NCBI GenBank assembly: GCA_963781585.1
Contig: CAWAGQ010000002.1
Location: 180,241 to 244,240, forward strand
Length of the DNA stretch: 64,000 nt
Direction: 5' to 3'
Source: an uncultured Gemmatimonadaceae bacterium
Lineage (GTDB): Bacteria; Gemmatimonadota; Gemmatimonadetes; Gemmatimonadales; Gemmatimonadaceae
Shown: positions 501-56,537 of the stretch, piece after piece
Layout of the letters: each line of letters starts with the position of its first letter
Position numbering within the stretch: position 1 is the stretch's first letter
The notes under the pieces: generated by a model
Seen by the model: only the letters and a program-made list of their open reading frames with translations
What the model was told of the DNA's origin: nothing
The model's database searches: none
Translations under genes and position numbers: made by a program

Positions 501-545
501 GGGGGCACACGGTCGAGACACGCGCGGCCCGTATATTTGCGGGCG

Positions 546-1723: not shown

Positions 1724-1786
1724 CGCGCCAGCGCTCCTCGAATCGCCGTGCGCCCCTCGCCGGTCTCCCCATCAGCCCCAGGCAAC

Positions 1787-2305: not shown

Positions 2306-2351
2306 GATTCCGGGCTTGACCGAGGCGGGCGCTGCACGACAGCCTTCTCCA

Positions 2352-2759: not shown

Positions 2760-2782
2760 TCGTTCATCGCCATCAACTCGTT

Positions 2783-3061
2783 ATGCGCGCCTTTCAGGGA
2801 CCGGACGGCACAATGTGGGGGGTGGACGTCAAGGTGCCGAGTTTCAGCAGCGCGATGGTGGTGTTCCGGCCGCCCGATGGAGAAACCGCCCGCGGGGACC
2901 GGTATGCGTGGTACAACGCGCACACGCCGGAGGCGCACGATCCGCGGGCGCGGCTCAAGCCGAAGGCGGTGCTCGAGTCGCTCACCGACATGCAGATCGC
3001 CCTGCTTTTCCGGCGGTCGATGCCGATCAACGAGGACCGGCCGAGCTACGTGGTGACGTAG
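2783..3061 (+). CDS. Hypothetical protein
   Basis: 92-aa ORF with normal composition, co-oriented with upstream genes. Confidence 0.65.
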   Translation: MRAFQGPDGTMWGVDVKVPSFSSAMVVFRPPDGETARGDRYAWYNAHTPEAHDPRARLKPKAVLESLTDMQIALLFRRSMPINEDRPSYVVT

Positions 3062-3064
3062 GTC

Positions 3065-37090: not shown

Positions 37091-38959
37091 TCATGGAACA
37101 GCGTGCCACCAATCGATGTCCGCGCGCGCCGAGAGGGGATGGGAGCAATCCGTGTGCACGCCGTACCGGCACGCCAGCGCGAAGAGTCGGGATGCTTCGC
37201 GCGCGTCGCGCTTGACGCCAAGGCCGATCTCGTGCAGACGTCCCAGCAGGAAACACCCCTCGCCGGAGTGCGCGTTGCAGCTGCGCTCGGCAAGTTCCCG
37301 CGCGCGCGGAAAGTCCGGGTTCGCGCCCAGCCCGAACGACAACTGCTGCGCCAGCAGATTGCACCCCACGGGATCGTAGAGGGCGCAGGCCGCTTCGGCC
37401 AGGCGGCCCGCGAGTGTTTGCTCAGCGGGTGAGCGGTTCCGCTCCACGTAGAGGCGCGCGAGGAAGGCGCACGAGGTCGCGTCGCCACTGCGGCAGCCGG
37501 TGTCGAGATAGGTCTGGCCGGCCGGAGCGAGCCGGGTGCCCGACGTGCCCGGACTCGCGATGGCGGCGTAGGGACAGGCGGCGGGAACGCCGCCGGTGCA
37601 GCCGTTACCAAGGGCCGACAGCAGTTCGCCCGGGCTGCCGCCGTGGCCCTGCGACAGCCACAGACGGGCCAGTCCAGCGCACGCGTTAGGCTCGGCGTGG
37701 TCGCAGGCCTTCCGGAGCCGTGCCGTCCCGTCGGCGCTCCGCGCCGGGTCGCGGGCATCCAGCAGCGCGCCTTCCGCACACGACGCCGCATCTCCCGCGT
37801 CGCAGCCGTGCGCCAGCAGATCGCGCGCCGTGGCGTCGTCCCGCGGGACGCCGTGAGCCGCGAGCACGCGGATGCCCGCCGCGTAGCAGTCGCCGGGCGC
37901 GCCGGCACGGCACGTACCGGACAGCGCGTCGAACCCTCGCGAATCGACCGCCGCGACCAGGACGTCCGGTGCCGCCGCAACGCTCTCCGCCAGAGTGTGT
38001 GACGCGCCGGCTCCGCGCGAACGCGTGTCAGGGACGGCGGCCGGTGGGGTGCCCGCGTCCCGGACCGGGCCGCCTGGCGGGGATGCCGGGGCGGTCCCGG
38101 ATCCAGCGCCGCCGGGATTCGCCCAGGCTCTCGCCGCCGCGGCACCCGCGTCGCGCAGCGGGAACAGAAACTCCCCCCCCTCGTCCTCGGTGTCGAAAAT
38201 CGTCCCGTACTCCGGTGTCACAGGACTGTTGTTCATGACCGCTGTGCGGAGACTGGTAAACAGCTCCGACGCGGGGAGGAGCGCCGCCCGATTCTCATCG
38301 AGTCGCTTGATCAGGTATTCGAGAAAGCGGCTGTTGTCCGGCACGGTCTCCTTGGCCCCGCTGGTCATGGCTTTTCGGCTCCGGAGAGCGTACAGCCGTG
38401 ACATGGCCGGCGCATTCGCGAAGTCCGCTCCGCGCGTCTTGAAGATCCCACCCGAGAAGCACGCGTCGGTGATCAACAGGGTGTGCTGCGTCTTGATGCG
38501 TCTGATCAGGTCACGGATATCGGCGTTGGAGATCCAGCGGGCCGGGTTCGCGCGCCTGGCATCCGCCGGGAGCCAGTAGCCTTGCTGAGTCTTCTCATCC
38601 CAGTGTCCGTGTCCGGCAAAGAAGATCAGGAGGTTGTCGTCAGGGCCCAGTCGCTCCGAGAGCGCGTACAGACTGGCCTCGATGCTGTCGCGTGTCGGAT
38701 TGTCCAGGACGGCGATGTCCCGTGACTCGAACTGGTAGCGCTGGATCAACACGTCGCGCAGTCGCCCGGCGTCACGTACCGGATTGTCCAGCCGCGGCAG
38801 CGCCGGATCGGCATAGTTCTCGACCGCGATCAGCAGCGCGTGGTACGCGCCCAGCCGTGTTGCCCCGCGGTTCTGCTGCACCTCGACCCCTCGGGTGTTC
38901 TGGGCCGCAAGGTGCGCGCCGAGCAGGAGCAGCAACGCCGGGTAGCGGGCGATCGTCAT
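37091..38959 (-). CDS. Exported caspase-family (C14) protease with Cys-rich Sel1-like repeats
   Basis: Signal MTIARYPALLLLLGAHLAA; ALLIAVENY, FFAGHG (His), TDACFSG (Cys); C-terminal GC..GD..SC Sel1 repeats. Confidence 0.9.
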   Translation of the reverse strand: MTIARYPALLLLLGAHLAAQNTRGVEVQQNRGATRLGAYHALLIAVENYADPALPRLDNPVRDAGRLRDVLIQRYQFESRDIAVLDNPTRDSIEASLYALSERLGPDDNLLIFFAGHGHWDEKTQQGYWLPADARRANPARWISNADIRDLIRRIKTQHTLLITDACFSGGIFKTRGADFANAPAMSRLYALRSRKAMTSGAKETVPDNSRFLEYLIKRLDENRAALLPASELFTSLRTAVMNNSPVTPEYGTIFDTEDEGGEFLFPLRDAGAAAARAWANPGGAGSGTAPASPPGGPVRDAGTPPAAVPDTRSRGAGASHTLAESVAAAPDVLVAAVDSRGFDALSGTCRAGAPGDCYAAGIRVLAAHGVPRDDATARDLLAHGCDAGDAASCAEGALLDARDPARSADGTARLRKACDHAEPNACAGLARLWLSQGHGGSPGELLSALGNGCTGGVPAACPYAAIASPGTSGTRLAPAGQTYLDTGCRSGDATSCAFLARLYVERNRSPAEQTLAGRLAEAACALYDPVGCNLLAQQLSFGLGANPDFPRARELAERSCNAHSGEGCFLLGRLHEIGLGVKRDAREASRLFALACRYGVHTDCSHPLSARADIDWWHAVP

Positions 38960-39319
38960 CGCGCCCCGCAGTGGAGCGTTCGGCGGATCGCAACTCTGGA
39001 GCACCATCGACGGGCAGCACCAGACAAAGCGCACGACATGCCCTATCCCCCGCAGAATCAAGTGGTGGTGAAGGCAGTCTAGGGATCACCGGGATGCTCG
39101 GCAAGGCGAGGCCGATGACAGGAGACGGGCAGAGGGCCCAGGGCCCAGGGCGAAAGGCCATGCCACTTGACGTGCTGGGGGATCAGTTTCACCGTTTCTC
39201 CCATTCCGTGATTCCCGGCCCCGTCCGGTTTTCGCGGAGCGCGAACCGGTCGATGCGTCGGTGCCGCAACCGAAGCGTCGATGCGGCGCCGAGGGTCGCG
39301 CGGCCGCCCGCAGCGAGCG

Positions 39320-40183
39320 ATGGTCATGCCTATCCAACACGAGGTTCCGGGAACACCGCGGGCACGACGTATCGCGTGCGCCGCGGCGGTGGCGGTGACC
39401 GTTCTGCTGCCGATGACAATTCCCGCGCAGGGATCCGTGGCCTACGTGCTCGTGGCACGCGGGGCGTGGTTCGCGGGAAGCAAGCCGGGGGAACGCTTGA
39501 CTGCTGGCGTGGCGCTCTTCGCGGGCGACACGATACACTCGGCGCCACAGTCCGAGGTGGGGGACCACATCACCGTCGTCCTGCGCGCCGGGGATGCCAT
39601 CACCCTCGAGTGCACGGCGATGGGCGAACGAGGCTGCGATGAGTCCACCGTGATCCCGGAGGCGCGTGGTTCGACGGTTTTCGGGCGCTTCGTCGACAAG
39701 GTGATGGAGGGGCTACGTGGCGAGCCGACACGATATGCCTCGCTGGTAAGTCGCGGAGCGCCCGGGCCCGCCGATGCGGTGCTCCGGACCCGCGGCGATG
39801 AGCTGGAGGTCGCCCCGGCGCTCGTACCGCTCAATTCCGACGAGTACGGACTGTGCCTGATGCGGCCGGTTCCAGCGAGTGCGACGGCCGCTGCGGGTTG
39901 TGCGCTCGAGGCGCGCTATCATTGGAACGCCGATCGGGCAACGGTCGCACGGTTGCCCGGACTGACGCCGGGGCTGTACCAGCTGGCCGTGCGCTCGGCG
40001 GACGGCGCGTCCGTTGGAGCGCCGGCGTGGGTCGTAGTGACCGACAGCGTGCATTTCCCGCAGATCCACGCCGCATTCGACAGTGCCCGTGCGCTGACCC
40101 TGCGGTGGGGCGATCAGGTTCCGCCCGGCGACATCAGGACGTTCCTGCGGTCCGCGCTCGACGCGCTGGCGCAGAGGCGCTGA
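39320..40183 (+). CDS. Secreted hypothetical protein (start uncertain)
   Basis: Signal-like segment, N-terminal beta domain, LVSRG linker, C-terminal GLTPGLYQLAV. Confidence 0.65.
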   Translation: MVMPIQHEVPGTPRARRIACAAAVAVTVLLPMTIPAQGSVAYVLVARGAWFAGSKPGERLTAGVALFAGDTIHSAPQSEVGDHITVVLRAGDAITLECTAMGERGCDESTVIPEARGSTVFGRFVDKVMEGLRGEPTRYASLVSRGAPGPADAVLRTRGDELEVAPALVPLNSDEYGLCLMRPVPASATAAAGCALEARYHWNADRATVARLPGLTPGLYQLAVRSADGASVGAPAWVVVTDSVHFPQIHAAFDSARALTLRWGDQVPPGDIRTFLRSALDALAQRR

Positions 40184-40194
40184 GGCGGCCGCAC

Positions 40195-41665
40195 GTGCCC
40201 GGCCACCGCGTGCCAGCGAGCGAAGAAGAGCGACCTGGTGATGGCGTCGCCGCTTCGCCGCGCAAGCGCGTACGAAGGGGGGTGCTGGCGATCGTCGGCG
40301 CGGTGCTGTTCTTCCTGCTGGCGGGTCGTCTCGAGGAGTTCTACGGCCTCGAGGCCGCGGCACGCGACTGGCAAGCGTCGCTGCGCGGGAGTGCACTGGA
40401 CAGCAGTGTGGTCCTGGTGATGATCAACGACAACGACTATCGCAGGTACTTCGGCGGTCAGAGTCCGCTCGAGGTGCACGCTCTGGACAGGCTGCTGCGG
40501 GCGATCGCCGCCGGGAAGCCGAGGGTGATCGGCGTGGACCTCGAGACATCGCATCCCGGCTTTGCCAGCCATGCAGCTGCCTGACGACTCGCCACCGATC
40601 ATCTGGGCGCAGGAGGCACTGCGGTGCGACGAGGCGGCGGGCGTCGAAGGGTCTGCCGCAGGTGTCGACTCCGTCGGGGCGACGAAGCCGGAGGCACCGC
40701 CGGGTTCCTGCGGCGCGGACGAGTTGGTGCCGCAGCCCGTGCTTGGCGGTCGCGAGGCCGCGGTACGCGCCGGATTGGTCGCGAACGTCCTGGACCGGAA
40801 AGGCACCATCCGGCTCTACAGCCGCTTCCTCCGCACTACGAACGGAACCCGGCCCTCGTTCGCGTATCTCGTGGGCGTGGCCGGTGCTCCCGATGCGCGA
40901 TTGGGTCCGGTCACGAGCTCTGATTCGACGGCATTGCGCTTTATCTCATTCCATCGTGACGCCGCGTGGAAGGTCAACGTGGAGCAGATCCTCACCATGG
41001 CAGCCGAGTCGGGAACCGGATACACCGGAGCACGGGGGGTCCTGCATGACAGGATCGTGCTGCTCGGTGGGAGTTACCGCGCCGGACGCGACGAACACCA
41101 CACCCCCGTGGGGATGCTGGCCGGGGTGACAATCCAGGCGCAGGCCGTGGAGACCGTGCTCGACGGGGGCGGCGATCCGTCGCCCTCGCTGGTGCGCATC
41201 GCGGTGCTGCAGTTCCTGGCGGGCGCGACCGTCGTGGTCCTGTTCCTGCGCTTCTCGCCCGCCGGCGCCATGCTGCTGACACTCTTCGCGTTCCCCGCGG
41301 TCGCCGTGTTGGGCAGTCTGGTGCTCACGAGTTCGGCGGTCGCGGGTCTGCCATATTTCGCTCCCCTGCTGATCTTCATGATCATCCAGCAGCTCTACGA
41401 TCAGGCGAGTCTGTACCGCGATACGCTCATCGAGGAGTTCTACCGGCAGGCGCGGGGCGCGGCGCGCGGGGAGGATGCCGCCCAGGCACTGCTCGACGGC
41501 GTCGAGGCGCGGGTGGAGCGACTCGAGACCGGGGTTGGCAGGCTCGCGTCGAGGGTTCTGCGGAGAATGAGACCCCGTCATGACGGCGATGAGACCGCGG
41601 CGGGGCAGAGCGGAGCCAGGCCGGCGCAAGGGGAAGCGCCGGCGGGAGAACGCCCGGACACTTGA
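40195..41665 (+). CDS. CHASE2-domain membrane sensor without catalytic output (frameshift near 40570)
   Basis: N-terminal TM; VVLVMINDND, KPRVIGVDL, DRKGTIR, DRIVLLGG...DEHHTPVGMLAGVTIQAQAVET; three C-terminal TMs; short tail. Confidence 0.85.
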
Positions 41666-41689
41666 CACCTCTCCCGGGTGCGCCATTCT
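41662..41689 (+). promoter_or_regulatory. Candidate sigma70 promoter
   Basis: TTGACA-16 nt-CATTCT upstream of the 41745 gene. Confidence 0.4.
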
Positions 41690-41744
41690 TGTCTGCCGCA
41701 GGCAGTGTCTCCCGCAACCCGTCGATACTCGTGAGGCAATCATC

Positions 41745-42209
41745 ATGTCGCTGAAGCAGACCACTCTGGCGTTCTGTGCGGGAGTCGCACTCACTCTTGC
41801 GGCGTCGCGAACGGTTCACGCGCAACAACCGACCGCGAAGGACACGGTCGATACGCATGCCGCGATGAGCCGGGGCGCGGCGACCACCGATCCGAACGTG
41901 AAGCACGATTCGGTGACCAACGTCCGGACGGCATCACCGGATGCACCGCCGGCCAAGGGGGGCGCCAAGCCTCGCGGCATGTCACCGGGACAGCTCCACG
42001 TGGACAATCGCACCCAGTGGGTCATCTTCATCTACGTGGACGGGGATCGCGTCGGCTCGGTCTCGCGATACGGTGATGCGTACGGCTACTACTCGTGCGG
42101 TCCTCACGTGCTCTATGCGCGCGCGTTCTTCGACGATGGGTCGGTGCGCACCTGGGGTCCCGTGACCGCGGCGGTGTGCGGGACGTACACCTGGCGGCTC
42201 TGGAACTGA
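41745..42209 (+). CDS. Small secreted protein: signal peptide, disordered pro-region, beta-rich domain
   Basis: GAGG SD; MSLKQTTLAFCAGVALTLAASRTVHA; MSRG and KPRG; LHVDNRT...IYVDG...TWRLWN. Confidence 0.8.
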   Translation: MSLKQTTLAFCAGVALTLAASRTVHAQQPTAKDTVDTHAAMSRGAATTDPNVKHDSVTNVRTASPDAPPAKGGAKPRGMSPGQLHVDNRTQWVIFIYVDGDRVGSVSRYGDAYGYYSCGPHVLYARAFFDDGSVRTWGPVTAAVCGTYTWRLWN

Positions 42210-42424
42210 CGTCGCTGCTCACGCCGCGCCCGCTCTTTTTTCTCATGCGTCCCACAGCCAGAACAACAGTTCACGAAGACCCTGAACACACTGACGCCCG
42301 AATACTGTTACTCCGCTGACTCCCGATTCCTGTCACTTCGCCCATCAGTTCTCAGCTATCAGTTGCAGTCATCAGGTGTCAGTGGCCTTTTTATCAGACA
42401 GCGAACGCATCGCCTGCCGAATCA

Positions 42425-44797
42425 ATGCCTGCCCGTGACTGCATGCGCCGCGCCGTCGTGATGCTGGCGGCCTGGTCCGCGATGGCAGCCGGAGGGGCGC
42501 TGCGGGTGGATGCACAAACGCGCCGCGTGCTGCTGATCGGGATCAACAAGTATCACTACAGCAGTGCGGTGACAGACGCGTGGCGCGCCCGCCTGCCGCC
42601 CGAGGCGGTGGCCACCACCCGCGGCCCCGACACCACGCGCCGCGCCGACATGCCCGATCTCGACGGCGCGGTGAGTGATGCACGCGCCATGGAGCAGCTG
42701 CTCCTGACCCGGTTCGCGTTCCTGCCCGCCAACGTACGGCACCTCTACAACGAACAGGCCACGCGCTCGGGAATCCTCGACGCCGTCCGCCAGCTCATTC
42801 GCGAGTCGCAGCCGGGCGACGTGGTGGTATTCTACTATGCCGGCCACGGCTCGCAGCGCTACAACTCGCTCGCGCCCGCGTCGGCATCGATCAACAGGTT
42901 CGACCAGACGATCGTCCCCGCCGACGCGAACCTCGGCCAGTACGACGTCCGCAACACCGAGCTCACCGCGCTCTTCGACGAGCTGCTCGCGAAGGGGGTG
43001 CAGGTCACGCTCATCTTCGACAGCTGCAACAGCGGATCTGCTGTTCGCGGCCTGGTGCCCCTCAAGGTGCGCTTCGCGCCGTTCGACCTCCGGGATGCGC
43101 GCGATCCCGCCGATCCGGAGTCGCTCACACGGCCGGGCCGCCGCAATCCGGCGCTGGTCCTCGCCGCCGCGCAGGAGAGCGAATTCGCCTGGGAGGATCC
43201 AGGCACCGGGCACGGGGCCTTCACCGCGGCCCTGCTTCGCGTGCTCCAGAGTGCGGCCACGTCGGTGAATGCGCCGGCGCAGGAGATCTTCCGCCAGGTC
43301 GAAGCGCTCCTGCGGTGGAACAGCGTTCCGCAGGTACCGGTTCTCAAGGGAACCGACGCCGACGCGGGGCGGCCGCTGTTTGGCGCGGAGAAGGGCGCTG
43401 GTGCCGGGCGACTCCTCCTCACGCTCCAGGGCATTACCGGTCCGCAGCAGGATACGGCGATTCTCGACGGCGGTGCGGCAATGGGCATCGGCGAGGGCAG
43501 CGAGCTGCGTGCGGTCGGCGTGGGGCCGGAGACGCTCCGCCTGCGCGTGGTCGGCGGGTCCGACCTGAGCACGAGCCGTGCAGTGGCGATCGCCGGCACA
43601 CTCCGCCCCACTCCGGGCGCGGCATTCGTCGTCGAGAAATGGGTGCTCCCTGCCGAGGCGAACCTGCAGGCGTGGGTTCCGGCGGCGATCGACGAGCGCG
43701 CGCTCGCGGCGGCCGCGAGACAGCTGGCGGGATTGCGCAGCGCGGGGAGCGTGGAGTGGGTCGCCGATCCGACTGCACTGCCTGACGATGGCCGGCTCCT
43801 CTACACTGTGGAGTACGATGCCGGCACGTGGAAGCTTCGCCTCCCCTCCGGATCCCTGACCGCGCTGCGCGCCCCGGCTCCGGCAGACATCCAGGCCGCC
43901 GTCGCCGCCGACGTTCGCCTGACGAGCGAGGCGCGTGCGCGGGAGGCGGGCGCGCCGGCCGCGGCACCGGGACAACCGCGACTGTTCGTGATGGTGCCGC
44001 CGACGACGAGGCTGCTGCAGGAAACCGGCCTCGCGACTCCCTCGTCTCCGGTGCGCGTGTCGCCGAGTCCCGCGGGGTGTGCCTATGCGCTGGTGGGCCG
44101 GTTGAATGACGACGGCACGGTGAGCTACGCGTGGGTACGGCCGAACGCCACCGGGCAATCGGCGACCCGCTCGCCGTTTCCGGTGCGCACGGATTGGATC
44201 TCCGAAGGCGATGACGCGGCCGGAGGGAAGCTGGGCGAGCTGGGCCGGCGGCTGGCGCGGGTGAACTACTGGTTGACGGTCCAGGACCACAACCCGAATC
44301 CGTTCCCGTATCATCTCGTGCTGCGCCGCACCGACGCCACGGCGCCCGACAAGGCAATGGCCGACACCACCCCCACGCACGGTGGTGAGCAGTACCGGCT
44401 GGTGCTGCGCCCCGATCCCACGCTCCCTGTGCAGAGCGACACGCAGTGGGTCTACATCTTCGTCATCGATCGAACCGGCCGGGGCCAGCTGCTGTTCGGT
44501 CAGTCGATGAACAAGTTCCCGCCACCGACGGCCGCGCCGGGAGCGGGTGCGACGGCGGAGGTGGTGGTGCCGAAGTCCGACTTCACCATCACATCCCCGT
44601 ACGGAATCGACACGTTCGTCCTGCTGGCGTCGAAGCGTCCGATGGGTACGCCCGAGAGCACATTCAGCTTTCCAGGCGTCGTGCTCGAGGGCGGAGCGCG
44701 TGGTGTGGAGGCACACACCGAGCCACCCCCCGCCGACTGGTCCATTCAGCGACTGGTGACGCGGAGCCTGCCGCCGGCCAGCGGCGGGAACCGCTGA
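42425..44797 (+). CDS. Exported caspase-family (C14) protease with DUF4384-like C-terminus
   Basis: Signal peptide; VLLIGINKY, FYYAGHGSQ (His), FDSCNSG (Cys), HGAFT; C-terminal WVYIFVID..G..LLF, PYGIDTFVLLAS. Confidence 0.9.
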   Translation: MPARDCMRRAVVMLAAWSAMAAGGALRVDAQTRRVLLIGINKYHYSSAVTDAWRARLPPEAVATTRGPDTTRRADMPDLDGAVSDARAMEQLLLTRFAFLPANVRHLYNEQATRSGILDAVRQLIRESQPGDVVVFYYAGHGSQRYNSLAPASASINRFDQTIVPADANLGQYDVRNTELTALFDELLAKGVQVTLIFDSCNSGSAVRGLVPLKVRFAPFDLRDARDPADPESLTRPGRRNPALVLAAAQESEFAWEDPGTGHGAFTAALLRVLQSAATSVNAPAQEIFRQVEALLRWNSVPQVPVLKGTDADAGRPLFGAEKGAGAGRLLLTLQGITGPQQDTAILDGGAAMGIGEGSELRAVGVGPETLRLRVVGGSDLSTSRAVAIAGTLRPTPGAAFVVEKWVLPAEANLQAWVPAAIDERALAAAARQLAGLRSAGSVEWVADPTALPDDGRLLYTVEYDAGTWKLRLPSGSLTALRAPAPADIQAAVAADVRLTSEARAREAGAPAAAPGQPRLFVMVPPTTRLLQETGLATPSSPVRVSPSPAGCAYALVGRLNDDGTVSYAWVRPNATGQSATRSPFPVRTDWISEGDDAAGGKLGELGRRLARVNYWLTVQDHNPNPFPYHLVLRRTDATAPDKAMADTTPTHGGEQYRLVLRPDPTLPVQSDTQWVYIFVIDRTGRGQLLFGQSMNKFPPPTAAPGAGATAEVVVPKSDFTITSPYGIDTFVLLASKRPMGTPESTFSFPGVVLEGGARGVEAHTEPPPADWSIQRLVTRSLPPASGGNR

Positions 44798-44878
44798 TCG
44801 ACCCCGGCTTCCCGCCCACGAGGATCGCCGCTCTGCCGGCGCCGTCGGCAACCCGCTGTGCCGAGCGTGGCACGGCCG

Positions 44879-46492
44879 CTACTTCTTTGCGGGCTTTCCG
44901 CCGTCCCCCGGCCCGGGCGGACGCCCGCCATCATCGCCGCCACCGTGCCCGCCCGACAGCAGGTCGGGCAGGTTGAAGATCGAGATGGAGAAATACCGGA
45001 CGGCGTGCCCGTAGGTATCGCGGGTCCGGAGAAACTTGTCGTTCGGCACGTGGTCGCCGATGGCGAGGCCGTCCAGGACCGCGTGGCGCACCATCACCGC
45101 GCCGAACCCCACCTTGACCGACCAGAGCGAAAGCGCCGCGCCTAACGCAAAGGCCCGCGGCCCGCTGCCGGCTTCGGCGACCGTCACCTCGGGGAGCCAC
45201 AAGGCGACGTTGTGCGTGCCCCGCCAGTCGAGCCACGGATACCAGGTGATGCCGAGCGTCACGCCGTAGGAGAAGCGGTCGTCGACCGTCGACGATTCGT
45301 AGACCTCGTTAGGCGACCCCGACCCGCCGGTGGCCCGTACGCCATAGGTGTGATAGATGGCGCGGGAGGCGTAGAGTGCGGAGAGCGCGAGCGTGGCGTT
45401 GAGGCGGGCCGGTGGCGGGAGGAGCGTGACGCTGAACGAATAACTGCGGTCCCCGGCCACGCGCTGGATCTCGGGATCCGACAGCGGCTGGACGCGGACC
45501 GTGACCACCCGTCCCGCGCTCGGAGAAACCCGTACCGGAGGCGACTCCCAGTGCGAGCACGCGCCGAGGACCTGGTTGGCCGTATGTTCGACCCGGTACA
45601 CCCCGGTGAGCATCGCGTCCGAATCGCGCAGAGCCGTGTCGGCACGTGCCTCGACGCGCTGCAACCCGCTGCGCAACTCGACGATGCTGATGTCCATCAG
45701 CAGGGTGTCGCTGAGCGCGGCGCGCAGTTCGGCCGCCTCGGGCTGCAGCGTGTTCAGCGTCGCCAGCACGTCGCTGGAGATGGTAAGCGCACCCGATGCC
45801 ACACCCCGCGCCTTCGCGCCGGGCGCGCTTTCCTGGCAGCTCTGGTCCGGCACTTCCAGCGTGTCGGCCATCGCCCGCGCCTGCGCCTCGACGTCGCCGA
45901 TTCGCATGCGGTCCAGCGTACGGAGCGTCAGGCCGAGCACCGCGTCAACGCCCCTGGGGCCGTGCGAGAGCTGGTCGAGTCGGAGCAGGTCGCTCTCCAC
46001 GGCCTGGCCGGTCGCGAGCGCGCGCGCCGCCACCGCCGCGCTGGCAAGCGAAACGCCTTCGGGAACCGACTCCGGGAGCGTGCTGGCGCGCCTCGCGCCC
46101 GCGGGCCCTCGCCCGCGCGGGACCACGAACGCCAGCTCGGGCAGGTACGACTTCATCATCGGAAGGAACTGGCGAATCGGTTGCGCCGTCGGCGGAGCCG
46201 GGGCGGGGTTGTCCTCGGTGGTGATGCGATACAGGGCCGTGTTCGTATTCACGACCTGGAGCCGGACCGTCGCCTGTCGGCGTACGCGCCACGTGCCGGC
46301 TTCCACGGAATCGACCAGGCGGCCATGCGCCGGCTTCGCCACGTGGACGGTCTTCGCGACCGGATCGACCTGGAGGACGACGTCCGCAGCAGTCGTCGAT
46401 GAGTCCTGAGCGCGCACTACCCGGGTGATCGTCAAGAGACACCCGGCGCAGACGGACAGGACAAGACAGAGTGTATGGCGACTGGATTGCAT
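44879..46492 (-). CDS. Secreted or outer-membrane hypothetical protein
   Basis: Signal peptide; beta domain, PRGRG linker, helical middle, amphipathic beta-strand C-terminus. Confidence 0.65.
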   Translation of the reverse strand: MQSSRHTLCLVLSVCAGCLLTITRVVRAQDSSTTAADVVLQVDPVAKTVHVAKPAHGRLVDSVEAGTWRVRRQATVRLQVVNTNTALYRITTEDNPAPAPPTAQPIRQFLPMMKSYLPELAFVVPRGRGPAGARRASTLPESVPEGVSLASAAVAARALATGQAVESDLLRLDQLSHGPRGVDAVLGLTLRTLDRMRIGDVEAQARAMADTLEVPDQSCQESAPGAKARGVASGALTISSDVLATLNTLQPEAAELRAALSDTLLMDISIVELRSGLQRVEARADTALRDSDAMLTGVYRVEHTANQVLGACSHWESPPVRVSPSAGRVVTVRVQPLSDPEIQRVAGDRSYSFSVTLLPPPARLNATLALSALYASRAIYHTYGVRATGGSGSPNEVYESSTVDDRFSYGVTLGITWYPWLDWRGTHNVALWLPEVTVAEAGSGPRAFALGAALSLWSVKVGFGAVMVRHAVLDGLAIGDHVPNDKFLRTRDTYGHAVRYFSISIFNLPDLLSGGHGGGDDGGRPPGPGDGGKPAKK

Positions 46493-46909
46493 GTTCCCGC
46501 CGAGGGTTCGGTCTGCCAAGAGGCCGGCACCACCGTCCGGCCGACTGCTGCGGCTGCCGAACGACGTTTCCAACAGGCCCGGCGCCCGCCGGCGTCAGAG
46601 TGTGCCGCAACCCGGGAGCGATTGTCAAGTGCACCGCGCCGCCACGCAGGCTCCATGCGGGACGCTGGAGTGTCATGCCCATCTTGCGTCGGCCAGTTGT
46701 CCCGCGCAGTGTGTGGCGACACCTGGACGGATTCTTTCATGGTTACGACGCAAACCGGTTCAGCGAGCGCACGGATGCATTTGGCGCTCGTTCACGGTCG
46801 GAGAGGCGATGCCCGCAGCACCTTGCGCACGGTGCTTTCTGCCGTGCGCCGTGCAAAGCAGGTCCGTCGCCACTTCAGCAAAGCGGGCATCGTGCGCAGT
46901 TGTGTGGAC

Positions 46910-49900
46910 ATGGTGCTGTCGCTCTGGTTGCCAGCCTGCTGCGTTGCTCCCGTCGCGGCCCAGGTGAGCGGGTCGTCCACCAGCGCGGCCTCACTTCGAC
47001 AGGAGGCGCAGCAGCTCTGGTTCGAGGGTAAATACAGTGAGGCAGCCGCTGCATATGGGCGGCTCGCAAGCCTGTACGCGCGTGCCGGTCGGGTCGAGGA
47101 TTTAACGTCTGCCCTGGCACAGGCCGGCGAGTCGCGCCTCATGCTCGGCCAGTACGTCCAGGCGCGCTACGATTTCCGAGCCGCATACGCCGCCGACAGC
47201 ACCCGCAACGGTGCAAAGGCCGACGCCTACGACCTTGTGCTCGTGGCGCTCTCATTCCGCGTGGCAGGTCTCGCCGACTCGGCCATGCCGGCATACGACC
47301 GCGCGCGCAGCGCCCTGCAGCGCCAAGGGGTCACCGGCTTCCTCGACGCTGCCCTGAACGAGGCGCGCATGCAGAGCCTCACGTCGCGACGTGACTCGCT
47401 CGACGCGGAGATCCGACGCCGGCACCCGGACTGGCCGATGATCCTCTGTCCTCCGCCACCGTCTGATACATCCGTCACCGAGGCGAATCGCCGGTGGTTG
47501 GCCGAATGCTGGAGGGGCGATTCTCTTCTCGCAATTGCGCGCGACTCCGTGTCGCGTGCGTTCGACGCGCTCGCTGCCGGCATTTCCGGTGCTCGCGACG
47601 ATGCCCATGACGCAACTGGGTTCTCGGAATCACGCTGTCGGAGCGCGCTGCCGCGCTCCGCGAGCGCGGTGAGGCTGAAAGCGCCCGAGCCGAGTTCCAG
47701 AAGGCTTCCCGGGCGTTCGGTCGTACGACGGCACCGTTGTTGTTGACGCGTGTGCAAACTATTGGCGACCGTGATGCGCCCACCGACCACGTGCATCTGC
47801 GGTTTGTGTGTCGTGGTGCAGGGGCTGCGCCGTGGTGCCGTGTTGGCGCGACGGAATCGTCGATTGTGCAGCTTCGTCTGCGACTGGCGAAGGAACGATT
47901 TCTCGGCGACATCGAGGGAGAAGGACTCACCCTCAGACGACTTCGCGCCGCACTGCTGGCGGTCGGCGATACCGCGGCCGTCCGCGAGGCCGCCGCCGCA
48001 ATCGGGTGGCTCCACGATCTGCAGACGGGAGGCACGGGCGTGCCGGCAACGGAAATCGCGCCAGACGAGCGCATTGCGACTCTCCTGGCGACGGGGAAGC
48101 ACTGGCTCGAGGCCGGACTTGTCGATTCCGCTCTGGTCGCTCTGGATGACGCGCAGGAGGAGCTGGAGAAGCATAAGGGCGCCGCCAACCTGACGGCGCT
48201 TGGAGGGGAAGTCTTGGGGGCAAGGGCGTTGGCGCTCCAACGAAATGGACAGGTCGAGTCTGCCATCGAACTGCTGCTGGAAGGTGAACGGCGGCTCACC
48301 CAGCAGCTCGTCCTGACGAACGACGTGGCTCCCATGGTTGCTCGAGTTCTGCTGCTTGCCGACTTGGCGGGATTGTACCATCGAGCATTGGCGAAACCGG
48401 ATCTGCTGCGCGCGACCGCGTACTACGATACGGCGTCCACCGCCATGCTGAACGCGCTCGCAATGCCGTTGCGCGACGAAGAGCGGACCGTCCTGTCGGA
48501 CCGTGTGGCGGACTTGCACGCAGACTGGGCTCTGGCGTGGCTCGGTCGAGAATCGTTCTTCGGCGAAAGCGCTCGCAGTGCGCTTGGCGCCATCGAGGAG
48601 GGACGTGTTCGTGCCTTGCAGCTCATGCGGGGCGCGGAGTGCGAGCGAGACGTGTCGGGCGCGTTCCCTTCGCTCGGTGATAAGGTAGGTGAGTACATCG
48701 GAACCCACGTCGGGCCGGGCGAAGTACTGCTTGACTACGCGCTGGCGCGAGACACCCTCCTCATCTGGATTATCAGCGGCGGCCGTACGCAAGTGGTCCG
48801 TCGAGGAGTGGACCTGCAGGCGACCGAATCGGACGTTGCCGCGGTGCGTGCCGGCATGCGACCTCGTGCCGACGCGCCGGTCGCCCCTTCGGCGGCAGGG
48901 CGGCGGACGCCATCGAGCGAGCGTGGTGTTTTGGTCGGCGTCGAGCCGGCCACAGCGGCCGAGCCGGCGCTGAATCGACTATATGACGTTCTGTTCCCGG
49001 GTCCGGTGGAGGCGGCGATGGCGGACAGTCAGCTACTGCTGATTGTTCCTGATCGCGTTCTGAATGAACTGCCGTTCGCGGCGCTCCGGTCGGACAGCAC
49101 CCGGGCGCCACTCGGGGCGACTCATCCGCTTCGCTTCGCGCCGGGCATTGCCATTCTTGGCGATGCGGTCGAGTCGGCGTTCCCCACGGCGCTCCGCCCC
49201 TGCTCGGACATCACGTCACCGGAGCGGTGTGCACCCACCCTGTCGCGCGGATCGACGAATGCCGCGGGATGGAAGGCGCGACGCCTCAACTGGAGCCAGC
49301 ATTCGCTAGTGGTCGGAGATCCGCGAATGCCGCATGTGCGCCTTCCGGGAGGAGACACACCGACGTTGCTGGATTCGCTGCCGGGGGCCCGCGCGGAAGC
49401 GCTCGAGATCGCCGCACTCCTCGGCGTCAGGCCGCTTATCGACAGTGCCGCGACGGAGGGTGCAGTCCGACGTGCGATGGCCCAAGCGCCCGTGATTCAC
49501 CTGGCTACCCATGGACTCGCCTACAGCGATTCGCACCTGGCGCGCCGTTCGTTCGTTGTCCTGGCGGCCGATGCCACGAATGACGGATTGTTGGAGGCCC
49601 GGGAGATCGCGGACGACTCAACGCTCACTCTCAGGGCGGAACTCGTGGTGCTCAGCGCCTGCGAAACCGCGTTAGGTGCTCTGAGCCGCACCGAGGGTAC
49701 GATCGGCCTTCAACGTGCGTTTCTCGCCCGTGGCGCACGTTCGCTGCTGGTCAGCCAATGGAAGGTCCCCGACGCGGCATCGAGACTGCTCATGACGGCA
49801 TTCTATCGCGCATGGCTCGACCCCGCGCGCGACACCGACAAGGCGGCGGCCCTCCGTGAGGCACAGGTCGAGGTGCGGAAGGTGTATCGAGATCCATACT

Positions 49901-49935
49901 ACTGGGCGGGCTTTCAGCTCATCGGCGCGCCATGA
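46910..49935 (+). CDS. TPR-CHAT domain protease (frameshift near 47615; start uncertain)
   Basis: TPR-like helices; IVPDRVLNELPFAAL, LVVGDP, LPGARAE, IHLATHG (His), VVLSACET (Cys), SQWKVPD, PYYWAGF. Confidence 0.88.
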
Positions 49936-49965
49936 GGCGCGCGCAGCGGTCGCCGGCGCGAAGCC

Positions 49966-52063
49966 CTACTGCCGTCGCACTGGGCGGGCGACGAGTTGAG
50001 CCAGGCTCGGATCGACAGACAGGTCGAAGCGGCTCCCCAGCGCTGATCCCGACCCGGACGGCCACAGTCTTCCGTAGTCGATGGGAGGGAACGCGGGATC
50101 GGGTGCAAGGAGCAGAGGGCCGCTCGCCGGCAGGCGGCTGGCAACTTCCGGAGGAAACAGAAACGCCGCCAAGCCGGCTCGCGCAACGGAATCGTCTGAC
50201 GCAGCAAGACGGATCAAGCGCTGCTTGGTCGCCGCCACCCGCGTCAGCGCGGCGTACGTTCCCGAACTCAGCATGAGGTCCGGCCGCAGCGTCCAGATCA
50301 CAAGCGTGTCGTTGGCGAACCCGTACACCAAGGCCGATCGGCCGTGGAGCTGGTTGGCCAACGCCCATCCATCGTTGTCCATGGGCGGCGACGCATCGGC
50401 GTCGGTTATGTCGTACGGCACCGAGCAACCTGGTCGTATCGCAGAATCTACGCTGCTGTGTTGATCCGTGGGGAGCGGCACGAACCCGCCGAGTGCCTGC
50501 CGTTCACGTGCGCCGAGGGCAGACAAAACGTACGATTCGGCGAAGCCGCTGTCGCGCGCGGCCTGACGTGCCGCTACGGCTGCCCATGCCAGCATGATCT
50601 CTTCACGGAGCAGTGTGTCGTCTTGGGAATGCAGGAGCCTGACCTCACCGGTACCGGCCAAGGCGCGAAGGTCCGGCGGGATCCTCTGGATCGCGGGCAC
50701 CAACCACAGCAGTGCGATCTCGGACCCGCGTCCGCGCCGACCATGAAGCGTGGTGAGATTCATCAGCATGGTGGTCATTTCACGACAGTCATGCCGTCCT
50801 GGCACGAACGCGGAATCAGTTCCTGGGATCCCCAGTTCACCTACTGCCTCGGCAGCGCGGTAGGCCTCCATAGCTGACTGCGTGAACACTATGGCACTGT
50901 CGATGCTGTTCGATTCGGAGAAGCGGGATGCCAATCTCACGTACACGCGCCACAGCTGCGCCGCGCCGCGCGGGTTCGATTGGAGCGGCGAGCGCTGCCT
51001 GCACGAGATACGCTGTGGTGGAGTCCGAGACGCCCATGCTTTCGTACAGCACCGCAATACGCTGTCGGGTTTGGGCCAACCCCGCTCCGCCGCTCTCTCG
51101 TTGCGCCGCCGCGAGAAGCTTGAGGTGCCGAAGTACAGTGTCAGTCGGAACGCGCTCGGACTCGATCGCCAGCATCGAGGGGAGCACGGCTTGCGCCTGC
51201 ATCCAATCGTCCTGTTGCTCATACGCCGCGAGCGCGGAGCGGTAGTGGACCAGGGCAGAGTCGATCTGCTGATCCCGCGCCAGTCCGTTTGCCAAAAGGG
51301 TGTCTGCCTCTGGGGCCAACGAGGGATCGTAGAGGCGACAAACCGCTGAGAAGAGTCGGAGGTATGGCAGCGCGTCATGCGCGCGACCACGCTCCACCAA
51401 GGGCGGGACCACGGCCTGGATGGCCAGGCTGGTGACAGCGCCAATGCCCTCAACTGACGCGCTGTCCTGGCGCGGCGGTGGGTGGGCCAGGATCTGCGCG
51501 ACCAGCGCGAGCGCCGTATCCGGCCGCAAGGTCGCTTCCGTTGCCGCGAAATCGAGGAGTTCATGCACGAGTGCGCGATCGGCCCCGCGGGCGCGCAAGG
51601 CAGCTACCACGCGCGTGTGAATCACGCGTGCAGAGTCCAGACGGTTTGCGTCCGCATACGCGTCTGCGATATGGCTCTCCTGCTCCAGAACCACGCCGGA
51701 ATCGCCAATCTGCCGGGCCACCGCAAGCGCCAGAAGGTCGTAGTGGAGAACGGAATCCAGCGCGTGGTCCAGCCAAGCGAGCCACGCGAAGGTTCGCAAC
51801 GCGTCCAATTCTCTAGGCCGGTCGCCGCGCGCTCGTGCGAGCACGAGCGCGCGTTGTGCGAGGGACCGCGCCCGCCGGTTCTCCGTCAATGCGGCCCGCC
51901 CCTCCAGTGGAGCTGCACGCCTTGTCGCCACGGCAGCGTCCAGCAGCACCGTAACGGAATCGGGTCGCGTGGTAGCGGACCCCCGTATGGCTACCTGAGC
52001 GGACGACACCGGTGACAGGACCAGTTCGGCAGTACAGAGGATCAGCGTCGCTCCCAGGAACAT
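49966..52063 (-). CDS. Exported TPR protein ending in the non-catalytic first half of a CHAT domain (frameshift near 50930)
   Basis: Signal MFLGATLILCTAELVLSPVSSA; TPR-like helices; LVYGFANDTLVIW, LAAFLFPP, LLLAPD..IDYGRL, LGSRFDLSVDPSL then stop. Confidence 0.65.
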
Positions 52064-52521
52064 ACGGCGGCGACCGCGCACGGACACTCCCGAGCCGTGC
52101 CGGTGGGCCAGCCAAGGCAACGGTCCCCCGATGCTCGACTCACAACGCATTTCTTCGGTCCCAGGCATTGCGGTTCTCAGAATGTGCTGCGTCCGGCTGT
52201 TAGCCGAATTAGCCAGTCCCAAAAGATATGGGGGCTGTACGTATCCTCCGACAGCGCGACCCCGATTCGGACGGAACCCCGACCTATGCGCCCTGTTGCA
52301 TCCAGTGTATCGCCGTGGGGTCGAACCGAGCGTGGCGGTGACGCGGGAGTGAGCGGGTAGAACGGCAACCGCACGTCGATCCCACTGCCCTTGCCAAGGC
52401 TCTCCGTCCTTGAGCGATTAGTTGGGACGCTCCGGAGGTCGCGCGGGAACGCCAGTCGCGCCGGTAGCGGGAAGAGCGGCCGCATCACACGTTATCGGGC
52501 TCCCCACTCGTCCGCGAACAC

Positions 52522-53228: not shown

Positions 53229-53349
53229 CGGGAGCATGCAGGGCTGGCCGGAGCTCACGCCCAGTACCGCAGAAGAGGTTTGTCCGCGCGCGTAGCGAGC
53301 GCGCGTCCGCAGGCCTACATTCTGCCGACGTGATCCATACCGCGGCGGG

Positions 53350-56300
53350 ATGAGCACGGACCTGCGCGCACAGCTCCAGGAGACCCTGGGCAGCGCCTAT
53401 ACGCTCGAACGCGAACTCGGCGGCGGCGGCATGTCGCGCGTCTTCGTGGCTGAGGAGACGCGCCTTCACCGCAAGGTGGTGGTCAAGGTCCTCTCTCCCG
53501 AGCTCGCGGCCGGCGTGAGCGCCGAGCGCTTCGAGCGGGAGATCCAGCTTGCGGCCTCGCTGCAGCAGGCGAACATCGTGCCTCTGCTTTCCGCCGGCGA
53601 GACGAACGGGCTGCCGTACTTCACCATGCCGTTCGTGGAAGGGGAATCGCTGCGAGTCCGGTTGGCGAAGGGGCCGCTCAGCGTGACCGAGGTGGTCGGC
53701 GTGTTGCGCGACGTCTCACGCGCGCTGAGCTACGCCCACGAGCGCGGCGTGGTGCATCGCGACATCAAACCCGACAACGTCCTCCTGTCGCACGGGACGG
53801 CGGTAGTGACGGACTTCGGTATCGCCAAGGCGCTCTCCGCGTCGCGAACGAAGAGCGGTGACGCCACGCTCACGCAGCTCGGCACGTCCATCGGCACGCC
53901 GGCCTACATGTCGCCCGAGCAGGCGGCCGGGGAGACGGAGATCGATCATCGCGCGGACATCTACGCCTTCGGCTGCATGGCGTACGAGTTGCTGGCGGGG
54001 CATCCGCCGTTCCACGGCCGCACGCCCACGCGTGTGCTCGCCGCCCAGATGAGCGAGACGCCGCCGCCGGTGAACGATCTGCGCCCCGACACGCCGGTCG
54101 TCCTCGGCGAACTGGTCATGCGCTGCCTGGAGAAGGATCCGGGTCGCGACCGCAGTCGGCGAACGACCTTGCCCGGACGCTCGACAACGTCACAAGCGGG
54201 GCGGGCATGCCATCGATGCCCGCGGTCCTGCTTGGTGGGCGGGGCATGCTCCGGCGCGCCCTGCTGGTCTATGCCGCCGCCTTCATCGGAGTGGCGGTGG
54301 TTTCGAAGGCGGCGATCATCGCCATCGGACTTCCGTCATGGGTCTTTCCGGGCGCCCTCATCGTCATGGCGCTGGGCCTGCCGGTCATCCTGTTCACGGC
54401 GTACGTGCACCGGGCCACGCGACGGGCCCTCACCGCCACGCCGACGCTCACGCCGCGGGGCACGCAGCCCGAGGCGCCGGGGACGATGATGACCATCGCC
54501 CTCAAGGCGAGCCCGCATCTGAGCTGGCGCCGCGCCGCGTTCGGCGGCCTCTATGCGTTAGGCGCGTTCGTGCTGCTGGTGGGTGCGTACATGGTGCTCC
54601 GGATGTTCGGTATCGGGCCGGAGGGCTCGCTGCTGGCCGCAGGGAAGCTGTCCAGCCGGGATCAGGTGCTGATCGCGGATTTCGCCGTACCGGGCTCGGA
54701 CTCGTCGCTGAGCACCGCGCTCACCCAGGCGCTCCGGTCGCAGCTCGAGCAGTCGACAGCAATCTCGGTGATGCCGGTCAGCTCTGTCACGGCGGCACTC
54801 GAGGAGTCGCGACGCCCCGCGAACACGCGGATCGACCTCGACGTCGCCAAGGACATCGGGTTGCGCCGCGGCGTGAAGGCCGTCGTGGCCGCCGATGCCG
54901 CGCAGCTCCCGGGTGGCGGCTACCTGGTGACCACGAAGCTGGTAAACACCCGGACCGGTGATGCCCTGGCGAGCTATCAGGAGACGGCGCAGGACGCCGC
55001 GGGGCTCCTTGGTGCGATCGACGCCGCGACGCGCAAGCTGCGAGCGCGCATTGGCGAGTCGCTCAAGGCCATCCAGGCCGAGGCGCCTCTTGAGCAGGCG
55101 ACGACGTCGTCGCTCGACGCCCTGCGGAAGTACGCCCAGGGCGTGCGTGCGAACGACGTGGAAGGCGACTACCTGAAGGCGGTGGGACTGTTGCGTGAGG
55201 CGGTGGCCCTCGACAGCTCGTTCGGTATTGCCTACCGAAAACTGGCCGTGGCGCTGAGCAATGCCTCGGAGCCCGCCGTGCTGCAGCGCGCGGCCATCGA
55301 GAGAGCCTACCAACTCCGGGACCGGATGTCGCAGCGCGAGCGGGATCTGGCGATGGGTGTCTACTTCGGCACCCGGCCCTACGCTGATCGCGCAAAGGCG
55401 ATCGACGCGTACAGCGACGCGTTTCGCCTCGATCCGCGGTCGTACACGGCGAGCGGCAACCTCGCACAGCTGGTGGCATCGAAGCGCGACTGGGACGGGG
55501 CCCTGCATTACGCGCGGCTCACCGAAGAACTGCTTCCCATGTCGGCCTTCGGGTACTGGTATCAGGTGGACGCGCTCGCGTCGCTGGGGCGCTTCGCCGA
55601 GTCAGCCGCTGTCCTGGACACGCTCGCCCGCGTGGACAGCACGAGCAGCACGTGGATCCTGGCGATCGCCTCGCTCGCCCAGGCGCGACAGCAATACGAT
55701 TCGCTGGGCGCGCTGCTCCGGCGACAGGTCACGGCCCGCGACCGCGACGCACGCCTGGCAGCCATCCAGACGCTGGTCGGCGTTGCGTCCGTCCAGGGTC
55801 GCGTGGCCGAGGCTCGTCGCTGGCTCGACTCGCTCGACGTGATGCTGCGTCTGCGGTCGCGCGCCGATTCGGCAACGGCGATCCTCGGCGACGCGTTCTT
55901 CGCCGCGGCCTACGATCTGGACCGGGCCGGGGCGATTGCCCTCGCCGACCGCATCTCGTCGGCCACCTACCTGGACGGGATCCCGTCGCCGGACCGTCCG
56001 TACCTTGGTGTCGCGACGCTCTACGCGCGGGCCGGAGACGCGGCGCGGGCGCGCGCCATCCTGTCCCGCTACGAGGAGCAGGTACGCGACACCGCGCTGC
56101 TACGACAGGATGCACCGGCCCACCATGGCGTACTCGGCGAAGTGGCGCTTGCCGAGCGCCAACCGAACGTCGCGATCCGGGAGTTCCGTCTGGCGGACGT
56201 ACAGCTCGACGGCGCACCCGATCCGTGCGCTGTCTGCCTCGACCTGGGGCTGGGCCGCGCGTACGACCTGGCGGGGCAGGCGGATTCGGCGATCGCCGCG

Positions 56301-56537
56301 TTCGACCGCTATGTGCGCAGTCCGTTCAGTGCCCGGCTCCCGACCGACCAGTTCTTCCTTGGTCCGGTCATGAAGCGACTGGGTGAGCTGTACGAGGCAA
56401 AGGGGAATCGCCAACAGGCCATCTCGTCGTTCACGCGCTTCGCCGAGCTGTGGAAGAACGCCGATCCACCACTGCAACCCATGGTGGCCGACGTGCGGCA
56501 GCGGATCGCCCGGCTGGCCAGGGCCGAGGGGCGTTAG
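53350..56537 (+). CDS. Hanks-type Ser/Thr kinase with TM segments and TPR region (frameshift near 54150)
   Basis: LGGGGMSRV, VVVK, HRDIKPDN, DFGIAK, GTPAYMSPEQ; continues as TM, TolB-N-like and TPR region in 54207..56537. Confidence 0.9.

Follow-up and report, generated by a model that had tools for sequence, protein, structure and literature searches.

A shared Thr/Ser-Arg-Gly motif in linkers of putatively exported caspase-like and CHAT proteases and their neighbours in a Gemmatimonadaceae gene island

Gene content of the island

The 64,000-nt stretch of DNA analysed here (the window; assembly GCA_963781585.1, contig CAWAGQ010000002.1, positions 180,241 to 244,240 of the forward strand) comes from an uncultured Gemmatimonadaceae bacterium. 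Between positions 37,091 and 52,063 it contains an island of genes for two caspase-like peptidases of family C14 (caspase 1 and caspase 2), a TPR-CHAT protease, a CHASE2 membrane protein (g3) and the putatively exported proteins g2, g4, g6 and g9. The initial annotation of this island had drawn attention to Arg-Gly (RG) dipeptides at processing-like positions and had read them as a shared R-G cleavage code. Judged from homologue alignments, six or seven of the 13 listed sites, about half, share a motif that is better written [Thr/Ser]-Arg-Gly(-hydrophobic or small), and this motif lies in flexible linkers that otherwise vary, at a constant spacing from the edge of a domain.

Genes were called from open reading frames (ORFs) and codon-position G+C in a window with a G+C content of 66-70%, and protein families were assigned with Pfam, NCBIfam and PADLOC (Table 1). 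The g2, g4, g6 and TPR ORFs had no Pfam, NCBIfam or PADLOC family match; PADLOC recognized the two C14 proteins by its generic caspase model only and gave no matches for the other seven proteins. Signal peptides of all proteins were assessed by eye. An N-terminus that passes from basic to hydrophobic residues and ends in Ala-Gln was recognized in caspase 1, caspase 2, g2, g4, g6, the TPR part of the CHAT gene and g9, which suggests that these proteins are exported. The Ala-Gln ends of the seven putative signal peptides (LAAQ, VDAQ, IPAQ, VHAQ, VRAQ, VAAQ and SSAQ) recall the cleavage-before-Gln habit of Bacteroidota signal peptides.

Table 1. Genes of the island and selected Arg-Gly sites, with positions in the window
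Feature	Position	Strand	Description
Caspase 1	37091-38959	-	622 aa (amino acids) from MTIARYP; C14-like peptidase, putatively exported; C-terminal Sel1 repeats
CFSGGIFKTRGA	38426-38461	-	Caspase 1; catalytic Cys167, Lys at Cys+7, Arg at Cys+9
QNTR-GVE (Arg-Gly)	38888-38893	-	Caspase 1; three residues past the likely signal-peptide end (..LAAQ)
g2	39281-40183	+	300-aa ORF, putatively exported; LVSR-GAP at 39743-39763
g3	40562-41665	+	CHASE2 membrane protein (Pfam CHASE2, E 9.9e-11); none of the RG sites of the initial annotation
g4	41745-42209	+	154 aa, putatively exported; AMSR-GA at 41862-41879; KPR-GM at 41967-41981
Caspase 2	42425-44797	+	C14 peptidase, putatively exported; weak C-terminal DUF4384-like match
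ATTR-GPD	42611-42631	+	Variable, gappy insertion of caspase 2
CNSGSAVRGL	43025-43054	+	Caspase 2; Cys201, with Arg208-Gly209 at Cys+7/+8
GGAR-GVE	44690-44710	+	C-terminal tail of caspase 2
g6	44879-46492	-	537 aa, putatively exported; VPR-GRG at 46106-46123; AKAR-GV at 45800-45817
TPR-CHAT protease, two frames	46910-47746 and 47737-49935	+	SSER-GVL at 48913-48933; TLSR-GST at 49237-49257
g9 TPR protein	49966-52063	-	QVAIR-GS at 51977-51997; convergent with the TPR-CHAT gene

Arg-Gly sites in number and in placement

All 13 quoted peptides turned up in the six-frame translation, in or close to the places given; QNTRGVE, for instance, spans 38882-38902 on the minus strand and its Arg codon occupies 38893-38891, as annotated. 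The annotation had also held that the placement of RG, not its count, is the signal, and our data agree. After trimming to likely starts, the island had 40 RG per 4587 residues, an ordinary number against the 33.0 expected (Poisson P 0.13) from the genome-wide rate, which was estimated with 2363 long, codon-biased ORFs of this genome serving as a proxy proteome (0.72 RG per 100 aa; observed-to-expected ratio 0.90). RG in the individual proteins fitted composition shuffles (p 0.31-0.87), with the exception of g2 (8 vs 2.9, untrimmed ORF) and the g9 TPR ORF (7 vs 3.0). The pattern [ST]RG, which was picked after the data had been seen, occurred 10 times where 3.0 were expected (P 0.001).

Placement was tested family by family by comparing RG in the linker with RG in shuffled sequences, and the reversed dipeptide, GR, was counted alongside as a control; since the homologues are related to one another, the resulting z-scores overstate independence. 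The expectation that RG would be kept while the flanking linkers vary was borne out at six or seven of the 13 sites and failed at four. RG was conserved within a variable linker at both sites of g4, at the caspase-2 C-terminus, in the caspase-1 N-terminal linker, in CHAT loop 1 and at VPR-GRG of g6, and GR was enriched at none of these conserved linker sites. ATTR-G, TLSR-G, AKAR-G and QVAIR-G were not conserved in homologues. As for the remaining quoted sites, LVSR-G of g2 has one usable homologue, and after the catalytic Cys of caspase 1 the Arg is kept and the Gly is not.

The small protein g4 upstream of caspase 2

The protein g4 consists of a signal peptide (by eye), a linker of approximately 55 aa with two RG sites and, in an AlphaFold2 model, a C-terminal beta-sandwich. 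We examined 160 loci around caspase-2 relatives (80 genome and 80 metagenome contigs), with Gemmatimonadota, Acidobacteriota and Bacteroidota in their titles, and found g4 homologues by tblastn (34) and by profile (37). Of the 139 loci with sufficient upstream DNA, 18 carried g4 directly upstream of the caspase-2 relative and on its strand; when every position in the locus was counted, 33 had g4. Site 1 (..SRG..AD.N[IV]K) had RG in 29 of the 34 homologues, and site 2 (..KGG.KTRG.) had Arg in 34/34 and RG in 32/34, the exceptions being R-A and R-T. The stretch between the two sites varies in length and sequence. RG was found in the linker of 27/27 homologues against 8.7 for shuffled sequences (z 7.9; GR z -3.1).

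A hold-out set was collected after the motif had been defined: a profile search in another 400 genomes of the phylum yielded seven new g4 homologues. Site 1 had RG in five of these and K-G in one; site 2 had RG in four, R-N in one and K-G in one.

The AlphaFold2 model had a mean predicted local distance difference test score (pLDDT) of 77.8, with residues 82-153 all-beta and above 90. Site 2 lies in a loop before this confident domain, where a 10-residue block averages 60, and a strand at residues 34-42, with a pLDDT of about 86, stands just ahead of site 1. Fold searches returned a generic transthyretin-/immunoglobulin-like beta-sandwich (best Foldseek E 0.014, best VIA-align Z 6.4), and the Atlas held unnamed clusters only for g4. 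An assignment to the beta-gamma-crystallin/inhibitor-I36 type, raised by a Y-x4-Y-x-G pattern and by one weak match among 28 members (E 0.019), was dropped on account of these generic folds.

A second clan CD protease near the g4-caspase-2 pair is recurrent. In locus L087 a further C14 peptidase with TPR repeats joins the pair (28-3111, plus strand); in locus L204 the g4 homologue has a TPR-CHAT gene as its neighbour, and in genome G305 (contig C3) the two lie within 7 kb.

Linkers and tails of the proteases

Caspase 2 scored 79.4 bits with Pfam Peptidase_C14 (PF00656; cut-off 21.4), and its DUF4384 match reached 18.5 bits, below the cut-off of 27. We aligned it with 102 of its 111 relatives, leaving out its own record and the eight weakest, mostly low-coverage relatives (P0224-P0231). 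The C-terminal tail contained RG in 87/101 homologues against 40.0 for shuffled sequences (z 10.1; GR z -4.9), and the final RG of the tail stood 9-11 aa ahead of the conserved Trp772 in 67/88. ATTR-G gave no such signal, with Arg in 6/103 at its column and RG in 19/100 loops against 20.2 shuffled.

Caspase 1 had no Pfam match of its own at E <= 0.01, and most of its listed homologues carry PF00656. It matched the NCBIfam model caspase_w_EACC1 at E 2.5e-22, under the cut-off of that model, and the PADLOC caspase model at E 1.9e-13; its C-terminus carries a Sel1 repeat. Among 8000 scored candidates, 603 were related to it at E <= 1e-5, and we aligned it with 119 of the 120 listed relatives (its own record, P0001, was omitted). 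In the last 40 aa before the protease domain, RG was found in 36/119 against 16.0 for shuffled sequences (z 5.7; GR z 0.9). RG occurred in the N-terminal linker of all 14 relatives with a short N-terminus and in 22 of the 105 with large N-terminal domains, and the linker Arg stood 17-21 aa upstream of the domain start in 31/37. In other Gemmatimonadales contigs, eight of eight Sel1-caspases adjoining caspase-2 relatives (31-33% identical) had AQG[VT]RRG[LI]E or QRGLE.

The CHAT protease matched PF12770 at 206.9 bits (cut-off 24). Of 8000 candidates, 4418 were related to it. The alignment combined the query with the first 78 of 119 listed relatives (P0233-P0310, the query record P0232 being omitted), and H592 and C642 were invariant in the 79 sequences. 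A sequence search of the Protein Data Bank (PDB) with the CHAT domain gave no usable solved relative. In loop 1 (SSER-GVL), just ahead of the Pfam domain, RG was found in 53/78 against 38.0 shuffled (z 3.8; GR z -3.4). In loop 2 (TLSR-G), Arg occupied the column in 1/79 and RG occurred in 18/78 against 19.1 shuffled. TLSR-G sits within an insertion (CHAT residues 466-529; 49130-49320, plus strand) with two conserved cysteines (..PC......C..) that is common to the closest relatives (P0233-P0238) and missing from the wider family.

The TPR ORF and the CHAT ORF align to residues 28-235 and 285-976, respectively, of a single 976-aa relative. In the window a change of frame near 47.6-47.8 kb divides this one TPR-CHAT gene, as a result of a genuine frameshift or of an error in the assembly. 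The neighbouring g9 also changes frame, near 50.85 kb, and its end part matches the start of a CHAT domain (E 5e-7) and stops short of the catalytic His and Cys; g9 is probably what remains of a TPR-CHAT paralogue, in tail-to-tail orientation to the intact gene. No homologue spanned the g9 N-terminus, and inspection by eye of 78 TPR-CHAT relatives revealed no recurrent RG past the signal peptide.

For g6, 163 relatives were found at E <= 0.001, and 52 near-full-length sequences of the 150 listed were aligned with the query. In the linker past the conserved PYLPEL, where VPR-GRG lies, RG was found in 26/52 against 13.6 shuffled (z 4.4; GR z 0.2). The insertion that carries AKAR-GV was found in 5/53 only. 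The g6 family consensus ends in ..Y.S.S.FG.PPF (C-terminus, 44879-45100, minus strand), and the C-terminal half is rich in alternating residues; it looks like an outer-membrane beta-barrel signature.

Some match to g2 (E <= 0.001) was found in five of 400 other genomes of the phylum, and one of these matches covers most of the protein (genome G407, E 1.1e-13). This homologue keeps ..SRG.. at LVSR-G and lacks the other four aligned RGs of g2.

A common motif at the conserved sites

Sequence logos around the conserved RGs showed that the residue before the Arg (P2) is predominantly Thr or Ser at g4 site 1 (22/23), g4 site 2 (20/26), the caspase-2 tail (71/88) and the caspase-1 linker (23/37); the corresponding counts were 58/100 at Cys+7 of caspase 2, 10/23 in g6 and 14/53 in CHAT loop 1. 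Position P2' is small or hydrophobic. The motif lies approximately 17-21 residues upstream of the CHAT domain, and its distance from the caspase-1 domain is likewise 17-21.

An unbiased scan of five alignments with a 24-residue window recovered the same motif places. It also found RG in structural motifs, namely the ERGRA helix (72/78) and ARGAR ([RK]G in 78/79) of CHAT, PxxRGALV of caspase 2 (26/102) and a core segment of caspase 1. Sorting signals and O-glycosylation sequons were weighed as other functions of the motif; its presence at a distance from N-termini speaks against a sorting tag linked to signal peptides.

Active sites of the two caspase relatives

The nearest solved structures to caspase 2 by sequence are the metacaspases AtMC4, AtMC9, TbMCA2 and Yca1; a PDB sequence search with a caspase-1 fragment gave no usable match. 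H141, C201 and D199 of caspase 2 were invariant in 103 sequences and D85 was conserved in at least 90%, and H117, C167, D63 and D165 of caspase 1 were invariant in the 120 aligned sequences. S1 positions were assigned through alignments with AtMC4 and TbMCA2 and from PMC6426788. In TbMCA2, Asp95 and Asp211 accommodate basic P1 residues (PMC6426788, PMC4357240), and the acidic S1 pocket is kept at these positions by D85/D199 in caspase 2 and D63/D165 in caspase 1. In metacaspases they underlie the preference for Arg or Lys, and both C14 enzymes are accordingly predicted to be Arg-specific. The initial annotation had stated that the orthocaspase MaOC1 cuts after Arg and is activated by autoprocessing after an Arg, which is in line with published reviews (PMC7475262, PMC7935541).

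The Ca2+ ligands of TbMCA2 are D173, D189, D190 and D220 (PMC4357240). With the TbMCA2 chain numbering taken as native plus 20, as deduced from His158 and the mutated Cys213, these align with D160, R176, N177 and R208 of caspase 2, so that the four-Asp Ca2+ site is not present. The altered ligand positions suit the Ca2+-independent orthocaspase type better than the classical metacaspases. The invariant D174 and E179 are close to R176 and R208 (residues 160-208), and the arrangement may be a salt-bridge replacement of the metal site.

This bears on the RGs that follow the catalytic cysteines, which had been annotated as processing sites. The Arg is conserved in both enzymes: R208 of caspase 2 in 101/103 (G209 in 100/103), and R176 of caspase 1 (..GGIFKTR) in 118/120, with K174 in 102/120. 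However, a structural role explains it better. Because the Cys+7 Arg of caspase 2 occupies a metacaspase Ca2+-ligand position, as does another Arg (R176), the post-Cys arginines of the two caspases are more likely a structural replacement of the Ca2+ site than cleavage sites. Such a replacement agrees with the Ca2+ independence of MaOC1 (PMC7475262). In caspase 1 the residue after R176 is Gly in 8/120 only (S27 D24 E17 K16 A13 N10), and this Cys+9 Arg is probably structural.

Interpretation of the linker motifs

We consider it moderately probable, from the alignments and from the S1 aspartates, that the Arg-specific C14 peptidase or peptidases of the island recognize the linker motifs. The enzymes would recognize Thr/Ser-Arg-Gly in linkers of their partners and in their own tails and linkers. 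Recognized sites would be cut, giving limited proteolysis of the partners and of the tails or linkers of the proteases; alternatively, the motif would occupy the S1 pocket as a latency element and be cut afterwards. Published work offers precedents. A bacterial caspase-like protease has strict P1 Arg specificity with small neighbouring residues (10.1101/2024.10.24.620036), MaOC1 processes itself at Arg219 and needs no Ca2+ to do so (PMC7475262), and cleavage at a specific site activates small proteins whose genes precede those of caspase-like proteases (10.1101/2025.11.14.688446). In clan CD enzymes, N-terminal regions block or occupy the S1 pocket (PMC4357240). The optimal MALT1 sequence is LVSR, with a small P2 preferred, and its substrates include LRSR, FMSR, CLSR and GASR (PMC3304489); MALT1 also cuts CARD10 at LLAR|G (PMC9463181).

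Several observations weigh against recognition by the C14 enzymes. RG is not enriched in the island as a whole, and the effect at CHAT loop 1 is modest, with RG in 23/79 when aligned columns are counted. Only about a quarter of the caspase-2 loci have g4, and its seven homologues in 400 genomes show that its distribution is patchy. RG is also conserved in clearly structural motifs, so a conserved RG alone is not a cleavage site, and the relatedness of the homologues reduces the weight of the shuffle comparisons. Finally, the caspase-1 motif stands 3-6 residues past the likely end of the signal peptide. A cut so near the mature N-terminus would remove almost nothing, so docking fits this site better than removal of a prodomain.

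The position of the caspase-1 motif also supports a rather doubtful alternative, in which [T/S]-R-G is a structural or docking element that acts without proteolysis, either as a turn or through a salt-bridge Arg that fastens the linker to a domain or partner. The N-terminal linker could lie on the protease domain, for example, and a g4 strand could pair with its own beta-sandwich; the strand modelled ahead of g4 site 1 suits this, as do the RGs in core helices. The Arg residues of caspase 2 at two metacaspase Ca2+-ligand positions (PMC4357240) and the Cys+9 Arg of caspase 1, which is held in the family largely without its Gly, are further arguments for a structural role. Against it, the identical P2-P1-P1' pattern appears in unrelated proteins and in linkers modelled with low confidence, and such recurrence is more easily explained by one reader, that is, by a protease site, than by separate structural needs. 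The motif also suits what Arg-specific C14 enzymes accept (10.1101/2024.10.24.620036, PMC3304489).

It is unlikely that the motifs are cut by another protease, either CHAT or a housekeeping protease of the envelope with cleavage after Arg, and that the C14 genes are otherwise mere neighbours. Separase, a CHAT relative, cuts after Arg; CHAT genes occur in 21 of the 160 caspase-2 loci, one of them adjoining the g4 homologue of L204, and for this CHAT family the sequence search gave no solved relative that would indicate its specificity. However, the gene pairing is specific, with g4 directly upstream of the C14 gene, the acidic S1 residues belong to the C14 enzymes, and the motif occurs at fixed spacing within the C14 proteins themselves. 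Chance, given that Arg and Gly are common at 68% G+C and that the annotation chose RGs lying in loops, agrees with the ordinary RG count and the shuffles of most proteins and holds for the four unconserved sites, but it is refuted for the conserved ones by family-level conservation with GR controls and hold-out and by a g4 site-2 Arg that is invariant across at least three phyla named in record titles, and is very improbable as a general explanation.

Starting from recognition by the C14 enzymes, we tentatively propose, with more doubt than confidence, a wider reading in which the island represents a widespread, undescribed extracytoplasmic limited-proteolysis module of Gemmatimonadota, Acidobacteriota and Bacteroidota, in which exported caspase relatives with Arg specificity all recognize one Thr/Ser-Arg|Gly code. 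In such a module the caspase relatives would free themselves from latency imposed by a tail or linker, process the CHAT protease in a cascade and cut g4 twice. The two cuts would release from g4 a conserved peptide of approximately 34 residues (G-x-x-A-D-x-N-[IV]-K ... K-G-G-x-K-T-R) and the beta-sandwich domain, and these could act as an envelope signal or effector. A search of open-access papers and preprints found no description of such a module.

Other features of the region

When the complete island was searched at the DNA level in 40 relatives, including one from its own genus, only short chance matches came up. From 46500 to 52100 the third-codon-position G+C is approximately 0.70-0.78, lower than the 0.81-0.86 of the neighbouring genes. 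Together, the low third-position G+C and an island without a match at the DNA level hint at a separate history of this stretch.

Just outside the island, at 53296-56537 on the plus strand, a Ser/Thr kinase ORF (53296-54489) overlaps a TPR ORF (53862-56537) in another frame. This overlap may represent another frame change, in a kinase-TPR gene.

Relation to known systems

The C14 enzymes of the island share the His-Cys dyad, the D-x-C motif and both S1 aspartates with the metacaspases and orthocaspases of C14B (TbMCA2, AtMC4/9, Yca1 and MaOC1), and they would be expected to have Arg/Lys specificity and, like MaOC1 (PMC7475262), to be Ca2+-independent. Unlike metacaspases, they are putatively exported, carry Sel1 repeats or a DUF4384-like region at the C-terminus and have a conserved T-R-G in the tail or N-terminal linker; two of the four Ca2+-ligand positions of caspase 2 are Arg and one is Asn.

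The island motif also resembles the MALT1 motif (hydrophobic-x-Ser-Arg|Gly) in its P1 Arg, small P2 (Ser/Thr) and P1' Gly. LVSR-G is identical to the optimal P4-P1 of MALT1, and AMSR-G and TLSR-G resemble FMSR and CLSR (PMC3304489). The likeness is confined to the motif, however; the island enzymes are bacterial, putatively exported and nearer to metacaspases, P4 Leu is not conserved in the island families, and TLSR-G itself is among the unconserved sites.

With protease-effector defence modules (EACC1, Pepco and bacterial gasdermin) the island pair shares a small partner gene next to the protease gene. In contrast to these modules, the island pair has putative signal peptides on both proteins and lacks a fused cytoplasmic sensor. 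g4 matched none of the EACC1, Pepco or PADLOC models and no NCBIfam or Pfam family, and scores against NF047832 (EACC1-associated caspase) were 79.4 and 62.1 bits, below its cut-off of 140. As in Craspase (the TPR-CHAT protease Csx29 and its substrate Csx30), a TPR-CHAT protease gene lies near candidate substrates, but the island has no CRISPR context and its proteins are putatively exported. Csx29 is not known to cleave behind Arg residues.

Relatives of caspases abound in bacteria. The substrates known for them are few and lie in the cytoplasm: antitoxins, EF-Tu and defence effectors. The new g4 family, with its two nearly invariant Arg sites, and the motifs in the tails and linkers of the proteases now provide a candidate set of substrates for exported caspase relatives, and the motif resembles the cut sites of MALT1 and plant metacaspases. 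Cleavage of the motif, if it occurs, would suggest that a Ser/Thr-Arg|Gly preference is old within family C14, and would point to protease cascades in the bacterial envelope.

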